A stretch of 64,000 nucleotides of DNA from Synechococcus sp. (GCA_047285535.1 JBJBDC010000001.1:2336136-2400135), one strand, 5' to 3'; positions 1-8,369 are shown, counted from the first letter of the stretch. Program-made: numbers and translations. Notes: a model not told the origin generated them from the sequence alone.

Positions 1-660
1 CGCATGCTGCAAGCGCAGTCGAGACAATCAGCACGACCGCAAGGGAACCTCGCACAATCCAACCTTTCACTGGGCGGAGGTTACCTGCAATTCACGTTTG
101 TTGGCGGCATGGATTGTGATTCAGTCATCAGGACGAGTGTTGATGATTTGCTGACCACAGTGTTCTGTCTGGACCGTGGGCCTCAAGCGCTGCCGTTAAG
201 TCCTGAGATGCCGTTGCGTCGACACAAGCTGCCTGCAGTTATTCATGAGAGACAAAAGCTGTTCATTCAGGCCATTTTGTTTGTTTTTAGGGTAGAGAAC
301 AGCGGCGAGTGAGATGAAACGTGGTGTCATCGGCAGGATGTCTTGGCGTTGTTGTGAATCCGAAAAGATGACAGCCAGCCAAAGTTCAGCTCAGTACAAG
401 GCAAATGTCCAGGAGGTCGGCCAAAGATGGAAGGAGCCGATCATGTGCTGCGTGCATGGTTATGGCTAGTGTCTAAGGAAGGAAGGCCAACCGCAACGGC
501 TCCTGGGCCAAGGGATTGTCTCCCCCCCCCCGCTCATCACGCTGAGGATGAAAATTGACGAGGGCGGGGAGGATGGATGGCACGTCGCTACAAATCGGGA
601 ATGGCTTCTATCCCATGAAAGAAGTTTGATCTCTGGGGCTCAAGTCTTCAGGGAAATCTG

Positions 661-801
661 ATGCTCATGTCGCGTTTCACGTATGAGAGTTTTCAAATGT
701 TGTTTGAAATCTGGATGCTGCTCGCATTGGCCTTTGGATTGAAAGCTTGCAGTAGCGTTCTTGTGCGGTTGGATGAATACTTGCCTGCGTGGATCTTTTG
801 A
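661..801 (+). CDS. Possible small hydrophobic protein (46 aa)
   Basis: Manual translation MLMSRFTYESFQMLFEIWMLLALAFGLKACSSVLVRLDEYLPAWIF*; one hydrophobic stretch; below the ORF-track cutoff; no family recognised. Confidence 0.25.
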   Translation: MLMSRFTYESFQMLFEIWMLLALAFGLKACSSVLVRLDEYLPAWIF

Positions 802-1137
802 GCGTGAATTCATTGATTTGATGGTTGTGATGAGCCGATCCTCTCTGGTTGTTGCTAAAGCATGACTAATTGTGGATTCAGCGTTTGTGAATTTGTGCCT
901 GTCTTTGTCTTTGTCTTTGGATGATTGATGTTAGTGGCTCTTGGGATTCGATCTCTTTGCGTGGGTATGCGGTGATTGAGCGGAAGTGGCTTTTGATTTC
1001 GGTCGCATTGGATACCAAATTACTTGAAAAGATTTTGCTTAATAGATTAGTTCAAATGATTTTTACTTCTTATAAAGTTTAGTGTGACCTTTTAATTGAC
1101 GGCTTGTTTGGCCATCTCTCGGTGAAATTCAAAAACT

Positions 1138-2646
1138 ATGGCTTCGATCCGTTTTGGCGAAGAGCTATCCAATCTGTTTGCGCTGATTGATGCTGACGGA
1201 GATGGGGTGATTACCACAGCCGAGGTGGAGCAGTTGCTGACCTCCATGGATGTAATCGTTGACCCTTCTGAAGCCAGTGCCTTGCGTGAACTCATCGCCA
1301 CAAAGGGGTCTTTGAATCGCGCTGACTTTTTGTTTTGGGCTAATCAGCAACCAGAGTTGGGGACCCATCAACTGCTCAGGGATCTGTTTGCGTTGATTGA
1401 TACCGATAGGAATGGCTGGCTGAGTCAGGAAGAACTTTCTGTGCTGGTTGCGCTTTTGCTTACGCCTGAGGCGCATTTGACCCCCGAGTTTTTGCTGGAG
1501 CGGCTTGATCGTGATGGGAATGGGCAGATCACAACGGATGAATTTCTGGCTTTATTTGAGGAGGAGAGCCTGTTGTCGTTATCTCTGGCTGACCTCAAGC
1601 GCCTGAAGAAAAATTTGGTACAGATCACCAGCACGTCCCGTTTGGCTGGGGTGAGCCTGGTGGAGGTGGATTGTGATCTGGGAGCCGGGATCCCGGGAGC
1701 AGGGGCTGGGATCGAATTGCTGAAGACTGCCATGCAGCGCCAGAAAGATCTGCAGCGGATGAGTGAATCTCTGATTGCTGAGATTCATGCTCAGCAGAGT
1801 CCTATTGCTCGAGCGACCGCCGCTGGCAGTCACAGTCAGACCCCGCATGCTCGCCACATCGAAACCATTGCTGGAGTGATGCGCAAGGCTTCCCAACTTG
1901 TGGCCAGCACCCTCGAGCAGGGACGTTTCCCTCTAGTGCTGGCAGGTGACCACTCCACGGCTGCTTCCACGATCGCTGGCATCCGTCGTGCTTATCCGCA
2001 GCAGCGACTGGGGGTGGTTTGGATCGATGCCCATGCTGATCTCCATTCACCCTTCACGACACCGTCGGGCAACATGCACGGCATGCCTTTGGCAATAGCC
2101 ACTGGGCTCGACAACTTGCCCGAGTCGATCAATGTCCCCGACGCTCGCACCCAAGAGCTTTGGAGGGAATTAAAGCAGTTGCACGGATCAGAATCGGCCG
2201 CGATCGCATTGCGGGATTTGATTTATGTCGCTGTACGCGACACCGAGGCCGCTGAGGATGCAGCGATCATTGCGCATTCAATTCCTGTAATCAGCACCGA
2301 GCAGCTGCGACAAGAAGGGGCCTTGCAGGTTGCCAATCGCTGCCTAGCCCACCTTGCGGAGGTGGATCTTATTTATGTGAGCTTCGATGTGGATGCCCTT
2401 GATTCAACGATCTGTAAGGGAACAGGAACTCCGGTGCCTGGGGGGCTCTGGGCCCATGAAGCTGCTTCACTCTTGCGCACTCTGCTGTCCGACCCACGGA
2501 TTTGTTGTTGGGAAATCTGCGAAATTAATCCTCATCTTGATGAGCTGAACACCCTGGCGGAGGTTTCGCTGGGGATCTTCCGGGCCGGACTGGAGGTGCT
2601 CTCGGAGCGGTTCACTCCCATCACCGTTGCCTCCTATGCCGATTGA
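1138..2646 (+). CDS. Arginase (ureohydrolase family) with N-terminal calmodulin-like EF-hand domain
   Basis: EF loops DADGDGVITTAE, DTDRNGWLSQEE, DRDGNGQITTDE; ureohydrolase Mn-binding motifs AGDHS, WIDAHAD, SFDVD, EINP; arginase-type PSGNMHGMP. Confidence 0.9.
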   Translation: MASIRFGEELSNLFALIDADGDGVITTAEVEQLLTSMDVIVDPSEASALRELIATKGSLNRADFLFWANQQPELGTHQLLRDLFALIDTDRNGWLSQEELSVLVALLLTPEAHLTPEFLLERLDRDGNGQITTDEFLALFEEESLLSLSLADLKRLKKNLVQITSTSRLAGVSLVEVDCDLGAGIPGAGAGIELLKTAMQRQKDLQRMSESLIAEIHAQQSPIARATAAGSHSQTPHARHIETIAGVMRKASQLVASTLEQGRFPLVLAGDHSTAASTIAGIRRAYPQQRLGVVWIDAHADLHSPFTTPSGNMHGMPLAIATGLDNLPESINVPDARTQELWRELKQLHGSESAAIALRDLIYVAVRDTEAAEDAAIIAHSIPVISTEQLRQEGALQVANRCLAHLAEVDLIYVSFDVDALDSTICKGTGTPVPGGLWAHEAASLLRTLLSDPRICCWEICEINPHLDELNTLAEVSLGIFRAGLEVLSERFTPITVASYAD

Positions 2647-4240
2647 TGACCATTCCCTGTTTGAGCTTTTACAGGTCTTGTTGCCGCCACCTCCCCCGGT
2701 TCGCAGAGCTGTAAGGGGTGGGGTTTTTAGCAACCGCTTTTCGTTGAGCCCTTGGCTCAGCTGGTTGCGTAGCTTTTCGCAGGTGATCTTCATCAACAAT
2801 CCGCTGAGTGGAGCCCTGCTGCTACTGGCTTTTCTGCTGGGTTCCCCCTGGATGGCTCTTTTGGCTGTGGTTGGCATGGCTGCGGCCAATCTCACCTCAA
2901 GCCTGCTTGGTTTAGCAAGGAATCTGCGTGACCAGGGCATTCATGGTTTCAACGGTGTTCTGGTGGGTTGTGCTGGGGCATCTCTCGTGAATCTCGGAGC
3001 CGTTCAAAGTGTTGGTCTTTTGGTGATCTTGGTGGGAGTCGGGGGCGGTTTCACCACGGTGCTTGTCGAAGTCTGGAGCCGCTTCTTTCATCGCCGCGGA
3101 GATCCACCGGTGCTCACGTTGCCGTTCTGTTTGGTCACCTGGTGCCTTTTGATTCTTGTCCTTCCTTCATCTTCAGATCCGATTGAGTCCCTGCAGTTCT
3201 CTGCAGCAGGAGGTTTGCTGCAGGCGTTGCTGCTCGGCCTGCCTCAAAGCTTTGGTCAAGTGTTTCTCTGCTCAGGCTTGGCGAGCGGATTCCTGGTGCT
3301 CCTGGCTGTCGCCTTGGCCAGTCCTATGGCTGCGGCTCTCGGCGCGGCTGGGGCGATGGTGGGGATGATGACCGCTCTGATTCTTTCCCAAGGCGCTGAT
3401 CATGCGGCCGTGGCTCAGGGGCTCTGGGGCTACAACGGTCTTCTGGTGGCGATCGCTCTTGGCGGGATCTTCCATGCTCCCGGAGTGAAAAGCCTGCTGA
3501 TGGGTCTGGCTGGGGCATGTCTTGCCACTCTGCTTCAATCCCTTCAGGTCTCGCTGATGAGCAGCCTGCCTCCTTTGACCTTCAGCTTCGTGCTGACGAC
3601 CTGGCTGCTGCAGCGCTTTGCCAGCCAGACGTTGCCGGCTCTGATTCCGGTCTCCTTGCATGCGGTGGTTACGCCTGAGGAACATCGCAAGCGGTTTGTT
3701 GTCGCCAGGGAGCTGCTTGGCAGTTTCCGTCGCAACCTGCGGCAGCGGATTAATGGAACAGTGCAAACCCCTGGCCTGGCTCCGTTGGCGCCGGCGCTGC
3801 AGACTCAGGCGCAACGTTTGTTCCAGTTGATCGACCGCGATTGCGATGGCAGCCTCAGCTTGGACGAGTTGCGTGAGGCGTTGCTGCCGTCTCGATCCAG
3901 GGATGAGGCCTCAGAGCAAAGCCTGTCCTTTCTGGATTCTCAGCTGACAGCAACGATGGCTGCGATGGATCTCGATGGAGATGGACGGATCGACTTCGCT
4001 GAATTCAGCCAGCTGATCCAGCGATTGCAGCGGCTCCGTGAGGGGGAGGAACGGCTCCTTCTGTACCTCTTGCCCGTCGATGTCAATGGTGACGATCGCC
4101 TCGATCGGGATGAATTGGCCCGATTGCTGCAAAGCCTTGGTCAAACGCCGCTCACGGCGACCGAACAGTCACTGGTTTTCGCTGATCAGGAGTTGGGTCT
4201 GCGCTGGCGCGATTTTGTGGATCGCCTGCTGTTGATTTGA
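2636..4240 (+). CDS. UT-family urea transporter/channel with C-terminal EF-hand domain
   Basis: Duplicated UT signatures SFSQVIFINNPLSG/SFGQVFL, GIHGFNG/GLWGYNG, PVLTLPF/PPLTFSF; about 10 hydrophobic segments; EF loops DRDCDGSLSLDE, DLDGDGRIDFAE, DVNGDDRLDRDE; ATG 2636 overlaps the arginase 3' end. Confidence 0.9.
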   Translation: MPIDDHSLFELLQVLLPPPPPVRRAVRGGVFSNRFSLSPWLSWLRSFSQVIFINNPLSGALLLLAFLLGSPWMALLAVVGMAAANLTSSLLGLARNLRDQGIHGFNGVLVGCAGASLVNLGAVQSVGLLVILVGVGGGFTTVLVEVWSRFFHRRGDPPVLTLPFCLVTWCLLILVLPSSSDPIESLQFSAAGGLLQALLLGLPQSFGQVFLCSGLASGFLVLLAVALASPMAAALGAAGAMVGMMTALILSQGADHAAVAQGLWGYNGLLVAIALGGIFHAPGVKSLLMGLAGACLATLLQSLQVSLMSSLPPLTFSFVLTTWLLQRFASQTLPALIPVSLHAVVTPEEHRKRFVVARELLGSFRRNLRQRINGTVQTPGLAPLAPALQTQAQRLFQLIDRDCDGSLSLDELREALLPSRSRDEASEQSLSFLDSQLTATMAAMDLDGDGRIDFAEFSQLIQRLQRLREGEERLLLYLLPVDVNGDDRLDRDELARLLQSLGQTPLTATEQSLVFADQELGLRWRDFVDRLLLI

Positions 4241-5577
4241 GCTTGCAAAGCACGATCGCTCTCCGCCTTAGAGAGTTCAAGGTCACAGCCAACCGGTTGG
4301 ATCAAGTGCTCGAGTGCGTCGGCGGTTTGAGACAGGCCCTTCTCTTCTTGGATGAGTTTCTGCAACTGGAGAGCACGCTGTTTGAAGCTTGGGGTAACGG
4401 CGAGGCTCTGCAAGCTTTTTCTGAGCCCATCGGTGGTCACTGTTTTTGCTGTGTAAGTGGCTGGACTGACTCCCAAGCGCTCAAGGGTGCGTCCCCAGGC
4501 CGGCTGATCAGCGAAGAAGGCCACCACGATGCTGGGAATGCCACTGATCAGTGTGCTGGCTGTTGTGCCTGCACCGCCGTGGTGGATGGCACCTTGCAGT
4601 TGAGGGAAGAGCCACTGATGGGGACAGTGTTCGAGTACGAACACTGACTCAGGCAATCGACCTTTTGGCAGCAGATGCCCCCATCCCGGCGAGAGGATCA
4701 GTCGTTGATTGGCTTGGCATGCCGCGGTGACGATGATCTCGGCAAGCTGTTCTGGATCTCTGGGGATCATGCTTCCAAAGCCGGCATAAAACGGGGCTGG
4801 CCCTTCCTGCAGAAAATGCTTGAGGTCCTCAGGGGGCTCGTAAGGGTGATCGGCCTCCTTTGTGGAAAGGCAGAACCCTGTCACTTTTGCTTGAGAAGGC
4901 CAGTCCGCCGGCTTTGGGATTAAGTGTTTGCTGAAGAGATGCAGCACCGTTGGGGATTGCAGAAACGGAGGGGTGTCTTGTCTGGCTGATGCTCCGTTCC
5001 AGGGCAGTTGGGGTAGTCCTTGCTGACGTCGAAACGCTTGAATCACGTTGCTTTCTTGTCGCCATTTGAGAAGGCGAATCGCTTCATAACTGAGTTGGTT
5101 GAGTTTTCCTCGGATGCGGTTGCGAGGTCCGCTCCCATTGGAAGACCCATCTCCTGGCCAGCTCAGGAAGGAGAAGTTTGTTGTGCTGAGCAACGGAATC
5201 GGGCTGACCACCGCGAACCTGCAGCCCTCAGCTTCAGCAAGGTGATATCCCCATAGAGCCAACGGCGGAGTGAGTAGCAGGTCGCAGCCATCGATTGCTT
5301 TGCGGGCAGTTTCGATCCATTCATGAAGCAAGTTGTTATTGATTAAACGAATGGCTTTGCCCTCCATTAACTGGACGCCGTCTTCTGAAGCCATGAGCTC
5401 TCTGAAGTCTCCCGCAAGAGAGGTGAAACGCACCCCCTCGTCTTGCACAGCCTCTTGAAAATTGGCGCTGCCAATGAGATGCACATCATGACCGCGCTTC
5501 TTGAGTTCCTTAAGAAGAACCAAATAGGGCTCGAGATCACCGCGTGAGCCGACGCTGATTAGATGGATGGATGCCAT
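4186..5577 (-). CDS. GT-B glycosyltransferase, sterol-glucosyltransferase-like (GT1/GT28_N)
   Basis: SVGSRGDLEPY N-terminal motif, HHGGAGTT, FFADQPAWG; start set at MASIHL. Confidence 0.85.
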   Translation of the reverse strand: MASIHLISVGSRGDLEPYLVLLKELKKRGHDVHLIGSANFQEAVQDEGVRFTSLAGDFRELMASEDGVQLMEGKAIRLINNNLLHEWIETARKAIDGCDLLLTPPLALWGYHLAEAEGCRFAVVSPIPLLSTTNFSFLSWPGDGSSNGSGPRNRIRGKLNQLSYEAIRLLKWRQESNVIQAFRRQQGLPQLPWNGASARQDTPPFLQSPTVLHLFSKHLIPKPADWPSQAKVTGFCLSTKEADHPYEPPEDLKHFLQEGPAPFYAGFGSMIPRDPEQLAEIIVTAACQANQRLILSPGWGHLLPKGRLPESVFVLEHCPHQWLFPQLQGAIHHGGAGTTASTLISGIPSIVVAFFADQPAWGRTLERLGVSPATYTAKTVTTDGLRKSLQSLAVTPSFKQRALQLQKLIQEEKGLSQTADALEHLIQPVGCDLELSKAESDRALQAQINSRRSTKSRQRRPNS

Positions 5578-5662
5578 AGACGGCGGCTTTTTAATAACAA
5601 CTATTTTCTGCAGATCGCTTGCAGCGCGTGCGCTCTCTCGCTTAGAAATCGATGAGAAAGCA

Positions 5663-6868
5663 ATGTGTTGGTTCCTGCCCCCTCCGATCCGATTTGTGGC
5701 CTGCAATCTGGTTAAGGATCTTCTCGATTGGTGGGAGATTCATGGTCGTAGGGATCCAGCGCAAAAGCCTTGGATGTTTACTCCTGAAGGGAAATGGCCT
5801 CAGCGCTGCGAGCACTTGAATCCCTATCCGATTCACGTGGCCGAGGTGATGCTGCAGCAAACACAGCTGCAGGTGGTGCTGCCGTATTGGCAGCGCTGGA
5901 TGGAGTTCTTCCCAGCTCTTGAGGCGTTAGCTGAGGCGGAGGCGCAGACAGTGTTGCTGTGTTGGCAGGGTCTCGGCTACTACTCCCGGGCTCGCCGTTT
6001 GCATGACTCGGCCCGGCAGCTGCTGAAGCGAATAGGCTCCAATGCCTCTCATGATCCACAGTGTTGGTCAAGGGATCTGGAGGCGTGGCTGGAATTGCCG
6101 GGGATCGGCCGCAGTACGGCTGGCGGCATTCTTTCCTCTTCTTTTAATAGCCCAGTGGCGATCCTGGATGGCAACGTGCGCCGGGTGTTGGCGCGGTTGC
6201 AGGCTCATTCGCTTCCGCCGATGCGGGCGCAATCTCTGTTCTGGAGATGGAGCCAAGCTTTAATCGATGCTGCTCCATCGCGGGCCAGAGATCTCAATCA
6301 GGCTCTGATGGATCTTGGTGCCACGGTTTGTACCCCCCGTTCACCACAATGCTGCTCCTGTCCCTGGCAGGATCATTGCGCTGCGTACGCTGCTGGCGAT
6401 GTGGAGCGCTTCCCCGTGAAAGAGACCCCGAAAGCTGTGCCCTTTCAGGTGATAGGTGTGGGTGTGGTGCTGAATGATGCCGGTGAGGTGTTGATTGATC
6501 AACGCCTGAATGAGGGGCTGCTTGGTGGATTGTGGGAGTTCCCCGGCGGTAAGCAGGAGCCTGGCGAGGCCATCGTTGCCACGATCTCGCGCGAATTGCA
6601 GGAAGAGTTGGGCATTGAGGTGGCTGTGGGAGAGGAGTTGATCAGCCTCGAGCACGCTTACAGCCATAAAAAGCTGCGATTTGTTGTGCATCTCTGCGAG
6701 TGGCGTTCTGGAAACCCACAGCCTCTGGCGAGCCAGCAGGTGCTCTGGGTAAGCCCGAATGAACTGCGGAATTACCCTTTTCCCGCAGCCAATGCACGGA
6801 TCATCGAGGCCTTGGTTGGCAGGTTGGATCCTTCTGGTCAGCCTGAAGCAAGTTGCAATGAGGACTGA
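5663..6868 (+). CDS. mutY: A/G-specific adenine glycosylase MutY with C-terminal Nudix (MutT-like) domain
   Basis: EVMLQQTQ, WQGLGYYSRARRL, HhH LPGIGRSTA, DGNVRRV, Fe-S motif CTPRSPQCCSCPWQDHC, Nudix box GGKQEPGE..RELQEELG; start uncertain. Confidence 0.9.
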   Translation: MCWFLPPPIRFVACNLVKDLLDWWEIHGRRDPAQKPWMFTPEGKWPQRCEHLNPYPIHVAEVMLQQTQLQVVLPYWQRWMEFFPALEALAEAEAQTVLLCWQGLGYYSRARRLHDSARQLLKRIGSNASHDPQCWSRDLEAWLELPGIGRSTAGGILSSSFNSPVAILDGNVRRVLARLQAHSLPPMRAQSLFWRWSQALIDAAPSRARDLNQALMDLGATVCTPRSPQCCSCPWQDHCAAYAAGDVERFPVKETPKAVPFQVIGVGVVLNDAGEVLIDQRLNEGLLGGLWEFPGGKQEPGEAIVATISRELQEELGIEVAVGEELISLEHAYSHKKLRFVVHLCEWRSGNPQPLASQQVLWVSPNELRNYPFPAANARIIEALVGRLDPSGQPEASCNED

Positions 6869-7830
6869 TGACCGAAAGCTCCTCTTCCCCCCAGGTGCTC
6901 TGTCTCGGTGAAGCTTTGGTCGATCGGCTTGGCCCTGCTGGAGGGAATCCGGCAAAGGATCAGCCGGTGGATGATCGTTTGGGGGGGGCTCCGGCAAACG
7001 TGGCCTGCGCCCTTGCCCGGTTAGGGACTTCAGTGGCCTTTCTCGGTCGGTTAGGTGAGGACTCGATCGGTGCAGCCTTCAGCGCGCTGTTCGCCGAACG
7101 CGGCGTCGATCAGAGGTTGGTGCAACAGGATCGTCAGCGCCCTAGCCGGACTGTGTTGGTGCGGCGATCCATTTCGGGGGAACGGCAATTCCAGGGCTTT
7201 GCGGGTGATCAGGGTCTGGGATTTGCTGATCAAGCGTTAGAACCGATAGCACTGCCCAAACCCGCTGGTTGGCTGTTGGTTGGCACCATTCCGTTAGCTA
7301 CGGCGGCGTCTGCTGCGTCCCTTGAGAAAGCGGTGGCAGATGCCCGTTCGCACGGCATCGCTTTGGCCTTGGATGTGAACTGGCGCCCAACGTTCTGGGA
7401 TCCCCTGGCTGATCCAGCGGCAGGGCCTACCACTGAAGCTGCCACGGTCATCAGGCCACTGTTGGAGCAGGCCGCCCTGATCAAGTTGGCCAGAGAAGAG
7501 GCGTTGTGGTTTTTCGGAAGTGATGATCCTGCCGCGATTGCTGCAGGTTTGGCACAGCATCCTGATGTGGTGGTGACCGATGGAGCAAACCCCGTCCGTT
7601 GGTTCATTGCGCAGGAATCCGGGAGCATGCCTGTGTTTCAACCCAATGAGGTGATCGACACCACAGGAGCAGGTGATGCCTTCACCGCTGGTTTGTTGCA
7701 CCGATGGGACCATCCTGTAATCGAGCGGTTGCGCTTCGCGTCAGCCTGTGGAGCCCTGGTGTGTGGTGGTGCTGGAGCTATTGATCCACAGCCGCGGGAG
7801 CGAGACGTTCTCGCTTACCTGAGCCGATGA
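6868..7830 (+). CDS. PfkB-family carbohydrate kinase (fructokinase-like)
   Basis: GEALVD, GGAPANVA, DVNWR, DTTGAGDAF. Confidence 0.9.
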   Translation: MTESSSSPQVLCLGEALVDRLGPAGGNPAKDQPVDDRLGGAPANVACALARLGTSVAFLGRLGEDSIGAAFSALFAERGVDQRLVQQDRQRPSRTVLVRRSISGERQFQGFAGDQGLGFADQALEPIALPKPAGWLLVGTIPLATAASAASLEKAVADARSHGIALALDVNWRPTFWDPLADPAAGPTTEAATVIRPLLEQAALIKLAREEALWFFGSDDPAAIAAGLAQHPDVVVTDGANPVRWFIAQESGSMPVFQPNEVIDTTGAGDAFTAGLLHRWDHPVIERLRFASACGALVCGGAGAIDPQPRERDVLAYLSR

Positions 7831-8369
7831 CCGTACGCGCCGTGCTCCGCCTTGGGGATTCCAGGCTGCGTGAGATGGCTCAGCCGGTGCAGGATCTTGG
7901 AACCCCGCAGTTGCTGGAGTTGTGCTCCGATCTAAAGGAAACGATGGAGGCTCTTTCTGGTGCGGGGCTAGCTGCACCGCAAATCGGTGTGCCCTCTCGT
8001 GTGGTGATTTTTGGCGGGGGAGGCCCTAATCCCCGCTATCCGGGTGCTTTGCCGGTGCCGCTTACGGTGCTGATCAATCCGGACCTAACGCCCATCGGTG
8101 AGGGGCGTTCCCTGGGTTGGGAAGGCTGCCTCAGTGTCCCTGGCTTGCGCGGCCAGGTGGAGCGCAGCAACCGGGTGCGCTATTGCGGCTGGACGCCCGA
8201 GGGGGAATGGCTTGAGCGCAGCGTGGAGGGTTTCCATGCCCGCGTGGTGCAGCACGAGTGTGATCACCTCGATGGAGTGCTTTTCCCAGATCGACTGCAC
8301 ACACCTCAAGCCTTTGGATTCATCCCCGAACTCGAGCATTCAGGGCTGATTCCAAGGGTGCCTTCTTAA
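7827..8369 (+). CDS. def: Peptide deformylase
   Basis: GAGLAAPQIG, EGCLSVPG, QHECDHLDG motifs intact. Confidence 0.93.
   Translation: MTVRAVLRLGDSRLREMAQPVQDLGTPQLLELCSDLKETMEALSGAGLAAPQIGVPSRVVIFGGGGPNPRYPGALPVPLTVLINPDLTPIGEGRSLGWEGCLSVPGLRGQVERSNRVRYCGWTPEGEWLERSVEGFHARVVQHECDHLDGVLFPDRLHTPQAFGFIPELEHSGLIPRVPS

Follow-up and report, generated by a model that had tools for sequence, protein, structure and literature searches.

Why should a ureohydrolase and a urea channel, encoded by adjoining genes in the picocyanobacterium Synechococcus sp., each carry a calmodulin-like domain? Such a pairing could reveal how calcium signals steer bacterial nitrogen use. We analysed the locus in a window of 64,000 nucleotides (the whole stretch of DNA under study), where the initial annotation had proposed a Ca2+-controlled arginine-to-urea module; comparison of the sequences partly supported this proposal. 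The reading that we prefer, with a probability of roughly 0.55, is that each protein would be controlled in cis by its own Ca2+ sensor and that the two together would set cytosolic urea production and permeation.

Two overlapping genes and the proteins they encode

By an ORF scan, two overlapping genes on the same strand were located at 1138..4240 (+). Gene 1 (1138..2646, +) starts with ATG and encodes an EF-hand-arginase fusion of 502 aa (Pfam PF00491 plus EF-hand families). Gene 2 (2636..4240, +), delimited by its start and stop codons, encodes a UT urea channel whose C-terminus carries an EF-hand domain (Pfam PF03253 and EF-hand families), 534 aa in length from the ATG at 2636; an alternative start, TTG at 2627, lies in frame with this ATG and gives 537 aa. 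The shorter length is that of the database representative P0121, and the gene 2 product is 100% identical to this cluster; the gene 1 product is 99% identical to cluster P0001. Because the stop codon of gene 1 (TGA) is at 2644-2646, the overlap amounts to 11 nt (ATG) or 20 nt (TTG). The two genes probably form an operon with translational coupling. The co-oriented, overlapping genes and both fusion architectures described in the initial annotation were therefore borne out by the ORFs and Pfam matches.

The region 5' of the operon (313..1137, no strand assigned) is poor in ORFs and richer in AT than the genes (GC 0.46-0.48 versus about 0.57). It contains no ORF of at least 60 aa, matched no Rfam family at E<=1, showed no sigma-70-like site in a promoter search and was not found in 20 genomes of the same genus. 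Nor was an NtcA-type site (GTAN8TAC) found 5' of the operon, which we counted against the preferred reading.

The arginase-clade ureohydrolase domain of gene 1 spans aa 172-492 (1651..2613, +). Pfam PF00491 matched aa 172-471 (E 2e-49; 168.9 bits against a gathering cut-off of 22), and the best PDB matches were the arginases 2eiv (1e-39) and 1cev (1e-36). In a Foldseek search the top matches were all arginases, those of Bacillus scoring E 1e-17 with a TM (target) of 0.73; the AF2 model was confident overall for a two-domain protein (pLDDT 79.4, pTM 0.78). Invariant among 39 aligned homologs are H272, D297, H299, D301, H303, S310, N312, H314, D417, D419 and E462. H272, D297, H299, D301, D417 and D419, which we take to be the binuclear-metal (Mn) ligands of arginases, coincide with the corresponding motifs of 2eiv and 1cev, so that all six ligands are in place as had been claimed. 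The Ser-Gly-Asn-x-His loop is also kept (S310, G311, N312 and H314, invariant and aligned with solved arginases); its Ser-Gly-Asn part presumably holds the substrate carboxylate, and H314 is presumably the catalytic His.

Compared with the bacterial arginase RocF (B. caldovelox 1cev, T. thermophilus 2eiv/2ef4, B. subtilis 6nfp), the gene 1 product has the same fold, and the catalytic domains are about 31-35% identical; the alignment includes all six metal ligands, the Ser-Gly-Asn-x-His loop and the catalytic His. It differs in having an additional N-terminal calmodulin-like domain and junction helix (170 residues), about 25 inserted residues near aa 325-350, a score below the cut-off of the NCBIfam RocF equivalog TIGR01229 (191.9 bits versus 227.6), and His303 at the position after the DAHxD motif where 2eiv and 1cev have Asn. 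In arginases this Asn presumably contacts the alpha-carboxylate of the substrate.

The conversion of L-arginine to ornithine and urea is, judging from these comparisons, the most likely reaction of gene 1. It is unlikely, but deserves serious weight, that the enzyme acts on agmatine or another guanidino compound, in which case urea would still be released and the module would belong to polyamine or other guanidine metabolism. Such a substrate would fit the RocF score and His303, which is invariant in the clade (39 homologs) and shared by 55/55 EF-less relatives. It would also fit a short SpeA-like (arginine-decarboxylase-like) gene found as divergent neighbour in 5 of the 8 EF-less relatives examined; arginine decarboxylase is the classic partner of agmatinase. 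On the other hand, the arginase model is the best ureohydrolase model for gene 1 by more than 100 bits (191.9 versus 61.7 and 64.5 for the agmatinase models), the structural matches and the conserved loop are those of arginases, and one EF-less relative exceeds the RocF cut-off (230.4 bits). Moreover, the genome already has a bona fide agmatinase of canonical type (251 bits against a cut-off of 174.3), and the arginyl-tRNA synthetase gene downstream in 4/8 of the examined EF-less relatives is a pointer to arginine. Of the earlier assignment as an arginase acting on arginine, the clade and the catalytic residues stood; the sub-cut-off score, His303 and the decarboxylase-like neighbours weaken the part concerning the substrate.

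The UT channel core of gene 2 extends over aa 43-359 in the 537-aa numbering (2753..3703, +). Pfam PF03253 matched aa 46-328 (E 2e-63; 214.8 bits against a cut-off of 25) over profile positions 4-287 of 292, and the core aligned along its whole length with human UT-A/UT-B, bovine UT-B and the D. vulgaris UT. Foldseek matches were 8blo, 4ezc and 3k3g (E about 1e-14, TM (target) 0.77-0.84), and the AF2 model, with pLDDT 83.8 and pTM 0.83, was again confident overall for a protein of two domains. Against the NCBIfam urea_trans_yut equivalog the score was 144.2 bits, below the cut-off of 274.6. T164 and T318, presumably the pore threonines (one per UT repeat), match the Thr in the motifs of human UT-A and are invariant, together with the surrounding motifs, in 39 homologs. 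Thus gene 2 has the ten-helix core and both pore threonines in common with known UT channels (dvUT 3k3f, bovine/human UT-B, human UT-A); what it adds is a proline-rich N-terminal extension, a PEEH motif, a basic helix and an EF-hand domain of 150 residues.

Distribution of the pair and its nitrogen context

Among 201 genomes of the same family, 10 have an arginase of the gene 1 type, and a UT gene is directly adjacent on the same strand in all 10; UT genes are found in 16/201. In public loci of the close clade, the arginase is followed by a UT gene in 14/25. The same gene order is also seen in filamentous cyanobacteria and Burkholderiales-labelled MAGs. In a sample of 301 genomes across the phylum, the gene 1 clade was detected in three (G000, G064 and G399), each with an adjacent UT gene. 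The arginase tree and the UT tree gave the same groups. The pairing described in the initial annotation is conserved across lineages. The initial annotation had named independent occurrence of the two fusions as a refutation, and this is partly what we observed. EF-arginase without UT in the available downstream sequence accounts for 7/25 of the close-clade loci, and the UT-EF fusion stands alone in 6 of the 16 UT-bearing family genomes, one of them with an arginase remnant alongside and another with the UT gene split by a transposase. A whole picocyanobacterial clade keeps UT-EF without the enzyme, and the EF-hands of UT-EF are retained after loss of the arginase.

The Synechococcus sp. genome contains speA as well as ureC and urtA, the latter two away from the operon; the presence of urtA agrees with the earlier remark that Urt is the usual route of urea uptake in cyanobacteria. 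Neither an ADI/ArgZ-type family nor cyanophycin synthetase scored above cut-off in this genome. On this inventory, the gene 1 enzyme would be the sole direct step from arginine to ornithine. A leaky urea pore alongside urease and a high-affinity Urt importer brings no evident benefit, a point also counted against the preferred reading.

Could the two genes be co-located without being coupled? In that case UT-EF would provide high-capacity urea uptake for urease, and the arginase would serve a separate nitrogen salvage under a shared nitrogen regime. Consistent with this, ureC is present in 16/16 UT-bearing family genomes, UT-EF and its EF-hands outlast the arginase, and many carriers are, by their record titles, lake MAGs or picocyanobacteria of fresh or brackish water. 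Urease is common anyway (152/201 overall), so that its presence with UT discriminates little. The unbroken adjacency in the family and its survival in distant lineages argue against mere co-location, as do the lack of an NtcA-type site upstream and the Urt system already present in the genome. We consider this explanation rather improbable, somewhat more so than a substrate other than arginine.

The calmodulin-like domains

Gene 1 encodes a calmodulin-like domain with four EF-hands at aa 1-145 (1138..1572, +). Pfam families EF-hand_1/5/6/7/8 matched aa 9-140 (E 1e-10 to 2e-17), calmodulin chains matched the same segment, and AF2 predicted eight helices within aa 6-142. As EF1 begins at residue 9, there is no room for a signal peptide, and we place the enzyme in the cytosol. 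Three loops of gene 1 are canonical, having Asp in the first position, Asp/Asn in the third and fifth, Gly in the sixth and Glu in the twelfth: EF1 at aa 18-29 (1189..1224, +), with D18 and G23 invariant and E29 in at least 90% of 39 homologs; EF3 at aa 88-99 (1399..1434, +), with D88 invariant and G93, L95 and E99 at the same level of at least 90%; and EF4 at aa 124-135 (1507..1542, +), with D124 invariant and D126 and E135 likewise in at least 90%. The EF2 loop, aa 54-65 (1297..1332, +), is degenerate in 29/29 aligned family members having the region.

Between sensor and enzyme, AF2 predicted a basic junction helix at aa 150-167 (1585..1638, +). Cyanobacteria, Burkholderiales and Polyangia all keep this segment; among 39 homologs, K158 and L160 reach a conservation of 90% or more. 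It may be the target of the sensor; it lies outside the six most amphipathic 18-residue windows of the protein, which makes the idea of a calmodulin target weak for the enzyme.

In gene 2, the channel is joined to the sensor by a PEEH motif and a basic helix (aa 350-376; 3674..3754, +; AF2 helix H350-376). P350, E352, H353, R356 and R368 show no variation among 39 homologs, and the helix is amphipathic, with a net charge of +4 over aa 359-376. The calmodulin-like domain follows at aa 389-537 (3791..4237, +). EF-hand families matched aa 393-466 and beyond (Pfam, E 1e-10 to 9e-18), and calmodulin chains matched aa 395-512. For both proteins, the Pfam E-values lie far beyond chance. Foldseek matches were calmodulin, the CaM-like domains of CDPKs (3khe, 3l19) and the regulatory domain of the ATP-Mg/Pi carrier (4zcu). 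The domain comes after the last helix of the UT fold and a strongly basic segment. Both termini are cytoplasmic in solved UTs; for these reasons we place the channel EF domain on the cytosolic side as well.

Two loops of this domain are canonical, namely EF1 at aa 403-414 (3833..3868, +; D403 invariant, G408, S411 and E414 in at least 90% of 39 homologs) and EF2 at aa 448-459 (3968..4003, +; D448, G453, D456 and E459 in at least 90%). EF3 at aa 485-496 (4079..4114, +) is near-canonical: it has Asp instead of Gly at position 6 but keeps all acidic ligand positions, with D485 and E496 in at least 90% of the 39 homologs. EF4 at aa 519-530 (4181..4216, +) is degenerate, as judged from loop inspection and the homolog alignment. 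The description 'three canonical plus one degenerate' was thus exact for the enzyme but a little too favourable for the channel. EF2 and EF3 are decayed in the two Burkholderiales-labelled channel homologs.

We considered it improbable that the EF domains are constitutive structural or oligomerisation modules binding Ca2+ or other divalent ions, or have lost their function, instead of sensing a signal. One loop per domain is degenerate in all homologs, the third channel loop is without the usual Gly, and some lineages have lost the domains or let them decay. Yet the Ca-ligand positions of the three other enzyme loops and the first two channel loops do not vary at all or are conserved to at least 90% (39 homologs each), in sequences from cyanobacteria to those labelled Burkholderiales and Polyangia, and it is the same single loop that is degenerate throughout. 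Conserved ligands with a constant degenerate loop make the pattern of a maintained sensor. In addition, both domains are placed in the cytosol, a setting where EF-hands act as switches; free Ca2+ is normally low there. Taken together, the conserved adjacency, the fusion architectures and the ligand conservation fit a shared functional context around urea.

The sensor of the enzyme is dispensable in some lineages: the arginase beside UT-EF has only two EF-hands in G080 and none, even at E 0.1, in G199 and G064. With EF-less arginases beside UT-EF and each fusion also found singly, docking of EF domain to EF domain, one of the possibilities raised initially, cannot be obligatory. A metabolon in which the enzyme docks on the channel by EF-EF pairing, or by a sensor binding the junction helix in trans, and passes urea directly to the pore appears very improbable: the two proteins share a domain type, which is on the cytosolic side in both, their genes overlap, and a three-on-three complex is geometrically conceivable since arginases and UTs both form trimers, but the EF-poor arginases just described, the solitary fusions of both kinds and, as weak evidence, the lack of an arginase-UT fusion among longer proteins speak against it.

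Proposed Ca2+ control and related systems

According to the preferred reading of control in cis, gene 1 would encode a cytosolic binuclear-metal ureohydrolase releasing urea, and gene 2 a passive UT-type urea pore. Each would have its four-EF-hand domain on the cytosolic side, joined by a conserved basic helix, and the sensors would act in cis, like those of calcium-dependent protein kinases, NOX5 and Ca2+-regulated mitochondrial carriers. Ca2+ bound to two or three intact loops would alter the packing of the sensor against the junction helix or the working domain, and in this way enzyme catalysis and channel gating would be switched. One cytosolic Ca2+ transient could thereby adjust both the production of urea and the permeability of the membrane to it, and contact between the proteins would be unnecessary. 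The net flux of urea may be an export of surplus, or a retention or import feeding urease. We infer here that the domains bind Ca2+, in which sense this affects either protein, that arginine is the substrate and which way urea flows.

A more specific version, plausible but somewhat doubtful, is that the Ca2+ transient switches on an arginase closing an ornithine-urea cycle and gates the pore, which would make gene 2 the first ligand-gated UT member. The module would then be a direct output of bacterial Ca2+ into nitrogen metabolism, apparently transferred as a whole between cyanobacteria and freshwater Burkholderiales. If so, the cell could make the choice between saving arginine nitrogen for urease and venting it as urea in a matter of seconds.

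In Helicobacter pylori, the gated urea channel UreI works with the RocF arginase (a source of endogenous urea) and urease. UreI belongs to another channel family, is proton-gated and has no fused Ca2+ sensor; its arginase and channel genes form no operon, and its aim is acid survival. The ATP-Mg/Pi and aspartate/glutamate carriers resemble gene 2 in that a transporter is fused to a gating calmodulin-like domain, but these Ca2+-regulated mitochondrial proteins are eukaryotic, differ in fold, have an N-terminal sensor and are carriers, not channels. The aspartate/glutamate carrier has a further role in the urea cycle.

In calcium-dependent protein kinases, NOX5 and calredoxin (PMC7317449, PMC4911631), a calmodulin-like four-EF-hand domain controls a fused enzyme in cis via a junction segment. 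Their outputs are a kinase, an oxidase and a thioredoxin, whereas gene 1 has its sensor on the N-terminal side of an arginase; by analogy, the junction segment may be autoinhibitory. UT+EF-hand architectures with C-terminal EF-hand modules, as in gene 2, have been reported from bacteria ('Bacillati') and stramenopiles/protists, and the authors of that report suggest Ca2+ regulation (Biol Direct 2026, PMC12998343). In its main text the work is a domain census with neither gene-neighbourhood analysis nor experiment, and the words 'arginase' and 'cyanobacteria' do not occur there. Our literature search found neither an EF-hand arginase nor an arginase-channel operon described, so the earlier statement that no such system is known holds for these two and not for the UT+EF-hand fusion. 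Anabaena CSE (PMC7065334, PMC13578307) is a small cyanobacterial EF-hand protein tying Ca2+ to nitrogen metabolism; it is a stand-alone protein of filamentous species with two EF-hands and no enzyme or channel domain.

Overlapping genes for two sensor-fused proteins

Two genes encode proteins in which EF-hands are joined to a domain handling urea. Gene 1 (1138..2646, forward strand; 502 aa, ATG start) encodes an enzyme with EF-hand families at aa 9-140 and Arginase PF00491 at aa 172-471 (Pfam, E 2e-49). Gene 2 encodes a channel in which UT PF03253 (aa 46-328, E 2e-63) is followed by EF-hand families starting at aa 393. In the ORF listing, gene 2 occupies 2627..4240 (forward strand; 537 aa from TTG); starting from the in-frame ATG at 2636 instead, the protein has 534 aa and is as long as the database representative with 100% identity (P0121). 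The stop codon of gene 1, TGA at 2644-2646, lies within gene 2, and the overlap is 11 nt (ATG) or 20 nt (TTG), a typical arrangement for translational coupling. The ORFs, this overlap and the Pfam domains bore out the co-oriented, overlapping fusion genes described in the initial annotation.

Upstream of the operon is an AT-richer stretch of 825 bp (313-1137) in which no ORF reaches 60 aa. The upstream search gave no sigma-70-like promoter, terminator-like sites in it were at chance level, and an Rfam search of positions 1-8000 returned no family at E<=1. For positions 1000-4300, the look-up for RNA data listed no RNA dataset containing the sequence, and one coded run of unspecified kind matched 0.29 of its words. 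No GTAN8TAC (NtcA-type) site was present near the operon; the window holds two, both elsewhere, versus 1.5 expected. The operon borders strain-specific DNA, because a comparison with 20 same-genus genomes did not recover the 825-bp stretch. On the 3' side there is a convergent gene for a GT1-type glycosyltransferase (4186..5706, minus strand; EryCIII-like_C, Glyco_transf_28, UDPGT), whose 3' end shares about 55 bp with that of the channel gene.

The channel core (aa 43-359) aligns with human UT-A/UT-B, bovine UT-B and the D. vulgaris UT, and its AF2 model (pLDDT 83.8, pTM 0.83) matched solved UT structures with TM 0.77-0.84 (Foldseek). T164 and T318, the pore threonines (one per repeat), are invariant in the aligned homologs. 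Beyond the last helix, the chain runs through an invariant PEEH motif and a strongly basic helix (aa 350-376) into the EF domain, whose fold matches calmodulin, the calmodulin-like domains of CDPKs and the ATP-Mg/Pi carrier's regulatory domain (Foldseek). At its N-terminus, the channel has a conserved, proline-rich extension (aa 1-45; window 2627-2760) with a short predicted helix at aa 11-18.

As first annotated, the enzyme has three canonical EF loops (aa 18-29, 88-99 and 124-135) and a degenerate one (aa 54-65). The same composition had been ascribed to the channel; two loops are indeed canonical (aa 403-414 and 448-459) and one is degenerate (aa 519-530), but the remaining loop (aa 485-496) is near-canonical, with all acidic ligands present and Asp at position 6. 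The enzyme alignment took in 39 homologs, which came from filamentous cyanobacteria and picocyanobacteria as well as from MAGs with Burkholderiales or Polyangia labels. Across these homologs, D18, G23, D88 and D124 do not vary, E29, G93, E99, D126 and E135 are kept in at least 90%, and each of the 29 inspected sequences having the region shows a degenerate second loop. Among aligned homologs of the channel, D403 is invariant and G408, E414, D448, G453, D456, E459, D485 and E496 are kept in at least 90%; loops 2 and 3 are lost in both Burkholderiales-labelled channels. Judged from the alignments, the conservation in both proteins is the pattern expected of working Ca2+ sites, as which these loops are predicted.

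Distribution and linkage of the pair

The pair is a conserved association of two sensor-fused proteins around urea. Among the matches listed, 113 of 120 arginase homologs combine EF-hand families with PF00491, and the other 7 (343-389 aa) have PF00491 alone; EF-hand families are present in 117 of 120 UT homologs among the matches listed. Database names for these homologs are only 'arginase family protein' or 'urea transporter'. In the family sample (201 genomes), the UT was found in 16 genomes and this arginase in 10, all of them among the 16, and in each of the 10 the UT gene adjoins the arginase gene on the same strand. In the UT-only genomes (n=6), the channel EF-hands are kept in all inspected. 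Genome G118 carries, just 5' of a lone UT-EF gene, a 119-codon arginase remnant (locus L088, 4455-4811) with 71% identity to the C-terminal 42 residues of the enzyme, which reads as a trace of arginase loss. In genome G022 (locus L092, 4803-8202), a Mutator-family transposase insertion splits the UT-EF gene into two ORFs. Five lone channels were placed in the tree: four form one clade (100*), and the fifth, a second copy in genome G182, groups with a paired channel.

In the phylum sample, matches at 1e-40 occurred in 4 of 301 genomes. This clade accounts for three of them (G000, G064 and G399), each with an adjacent UT; the fourth (G353) has a 33%-identical arginase without a UT. Genome G399, large and of filamentous type, has a second UT copy with two in-frame TAG stops 9 kb downstream of the pair (G399:C59:30429-31307).

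Of the 80 public loci taken, 25 fell in the close clade. The UT gene is directly downstream in 14 of these, including Microcoleus, Crinalium, a Prochlorotrichaceae MAG and three Burkholderiales-labelled MAGs. Seven loci (Symploca, Calothrix, a Coleofasciculaceae MAG, Moorena, two Polyangia-labelled MAGs and one Burkholderiales-type MAG) have no UT within 1.4-6 kb of downstream sequence, and four end too early downstream to be scored. Co-occurrence, which the initial annotation had proposed as a check, is thus complete on the arginase side of the family sample (adjacent in 10/10), but each fusion also stands alone, the UT in six genomes and the arginase in 7/25 loci. No conserved third partner was found, the neighbours of the pair and of the lone genes varying between loci. 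A Rosetta-stone search among longer proteins gave no fused arginase-UT protein at E<=1e-20, which is weak evidence.

Quick maximum-likelihood trees of the arginase and the UT, with one row on a long branch, recovered the same groups. Burkholderiales-labelled enzymes are nested among those of cyanobacteria (99* SH-aLRT), a placement that suggests the module was transferred between lineages. Taxon labels need caution, several MAG titles being plainly wrong for the content: loci L006, L021 and L022 are titled Bifidobacterium breve, Bordetella parapertussis and Sulfopaludibacter, and their content is cyanobacterial or Burkholderiales-like. L022 and contig G199:C12 are one and the same 105,167-b contig.

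Some loci have other neighbours. In the same-genus genome G080 (locus L096, 2642-4114), the glutamine synthetase gene glnA precedes the operon at a distance of about 900 bp. In the Symploca MAG (L008, 1502-5905), only 57 bp separate the end of an NRPS module (C-A-T-TE) from the UT-less EF-arginase downstream of it; the enzyme may have a further role there, e.g. in natural-product chemistry. Directly 3' of the UT-less EF-arginase in the Calothrix MAG (L009, 7458-8879) is a convergent gene of the sodium:solute symporter family, which could be an alternative transporter partner. In the Moorena MAG (L023, 6001-7967), about 520 bp lie between the part coding for the EF-hands (6001-6471) and the arginase part (6993-7967); this gene is either interrupted or mis-assembled.

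Regulation in cis and the question of docking

We infer that both sensors are cytosolic. EF1 of the enzyme starts at residue 9 and leaves no space for a signal peptide, and a basic linker precedes the channel sensor at the terminus that lies in the cytoplasm in solved UTs. On the same grounds, a periplasmic site for either sensor was dropped. In both proteins a conserved helix joins the sensor to its working domain, and the pTM values (0.78 for the enzyme and 0.83 for the channel) suggest defined domain packing. A hydrophobic-moment test for a 'calmodulin-target' modestly supported the channel junction and did not support the enzyme junction.

By analogy, regulation by Ca2+ in cis is the most likely reading. 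In the simplest model, each sensor would regulate its own protein, much as in CDPKs, NOX5, calredoxin and the Ca2+-regulated mitochondrial carriers. In that case, production of urea and permeability to it would both be reset by a single Ca2+ transient, and the urea flux could serve either to export surplus or to retain or import urea for urease. The initial annotation had considered, beside such Ca2+ synchronisation, docking of the enzyme to the channel through EF-hand pairing. The pairing of the two genes was upheld and is conserved, but docking through the EF domains is unlikely: comparative data oppose it in obligatory form, since arginases without any EF-hand (none at E 0.1) are paired with UT-EF in genomes G199 and G064. 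In G080, the arginase paired with UT-EF has only two EF-hands. Complex prediction with enzyme aa 1-172, channel aa 345-537 and alignments as input returned 'no answer' (score 0.00, mark 0.32), a score that counts neither way on binding. The interpretation first offered was supported in part.

Ca2+ transients in cyanobacteria are well documented; to our knowledge, very few of their direct protein targets are known. A sensor-bearing enzyme and channel would provide two simple readouts of bacterial Ca2+ signalling, urea release and urea flux, both assayable in vitro. If true, gating of a UT by Ca2+ would add a new type of regulation to this channel family, which is of medical interest. Picocyanobacteria are abundant, and their release or uptake of urea matters for aquatic nitrogen cycling. 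In the literature search, CSE, NOX5 and calredoxin appeared as precedents, and CSE, a small sensor of filamentous species, as the characterised cyanobacterial Ca2+ target (PMC7065334, PMC13578307). The initial annotation knew of no description of such a system. This agrees with our search of open-access and bioRxiv full texts, which found no EF-hand arginase or arginase-UT operon, but it does not extend to the channel: EF-hand modules C-terminal to UT domains were described in 'Bacillati' and stramenopiles, with Ca2+ regulation suggested (PMC12998343, Biol Direct 2026). The main text of that paper nowhere mentions arginase or cyanobacteria. The pairing of sensor-fused enzyme and channel is so far uncharacterised, and is of interest because it is directly testable.

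The enzyme and its candidate substrate

The best solved matches of the catalytic domain are bacterial arginases (T. thermophilus 2eiv, 1e-39; B. caldovelox 1cev, 1e-36), and the top Foldseek matches of the AF2 model are all arginases (E 1e-17, TM 0.73). The six metal-ligand positions, noted as present from the start, are invariant in enzyme homologs, as are the catalytic His314, a Ser-Gly-Asn loop and Glu462. We do not call the enzyme an arginase outright, because its score with the NCBIfam rocF model (191.9 bits) is below the cut-off (227.6) and because the position after the DAHxD motif is His303 instead of the Asn of both solved bacterial arginases (2eiv and 1cev). The NCBIfam agmatinase models scored far lower, at 61.7 and 64.5 bits. 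His303 is invariant in the enzyme clade, and the same His is found in 55/55 EF-less relatives, mostly Bacteroidota, one of which narrowly clears the rocF cut-off (230.4 bits). Urea would be among the products whether the enzyme is an arginase or an agmatinase.

The genome, a single 3.03-Mb contig (99.99% complete), carries ureC (973 bits), urtA (591 bits) and speA (718 bits). Its second ureohydrolase is a canonical agmatinase (251 bits versus a cut-off of 174.3), and was dropped as a candidate duplicate of the EF-enzyme. Since no ADI/ArgZ-type family was found in this genome and no cyanophycin synthetase above cut-off, the EF-enzyme would be the sole direct arginine-to-ornithine step here. The ornithine-urea cycle in cyanobacteria is usually considered replaced by other pathways; a true arginase would make it complete in these picocyanobacteria. 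ureC is present in 16/16 UT-bearing family genomes, but also in 152/201 overall.

Neighbours were inspected for eight EF-less relatives: a divergent, short SpeA-like decarboxylase was found in 5/8, which would fit an agmatinase and an arginase alike, and arginyl-tRNA synthetase was downstream in 4/8. L026, L039, L044, L047 and L061 are loci of EF-less relatives where a short SpeA-like PLP decarboxylase (460-485 aa) is encoded next to the His-variant arginase-like gene, in many cases with arginyl-tRNA synthetase as a further neighbour. In Bacteroidota, the His-variant arginase-like and SpeA-like genes may represent an undescribed polyamine gene pair.
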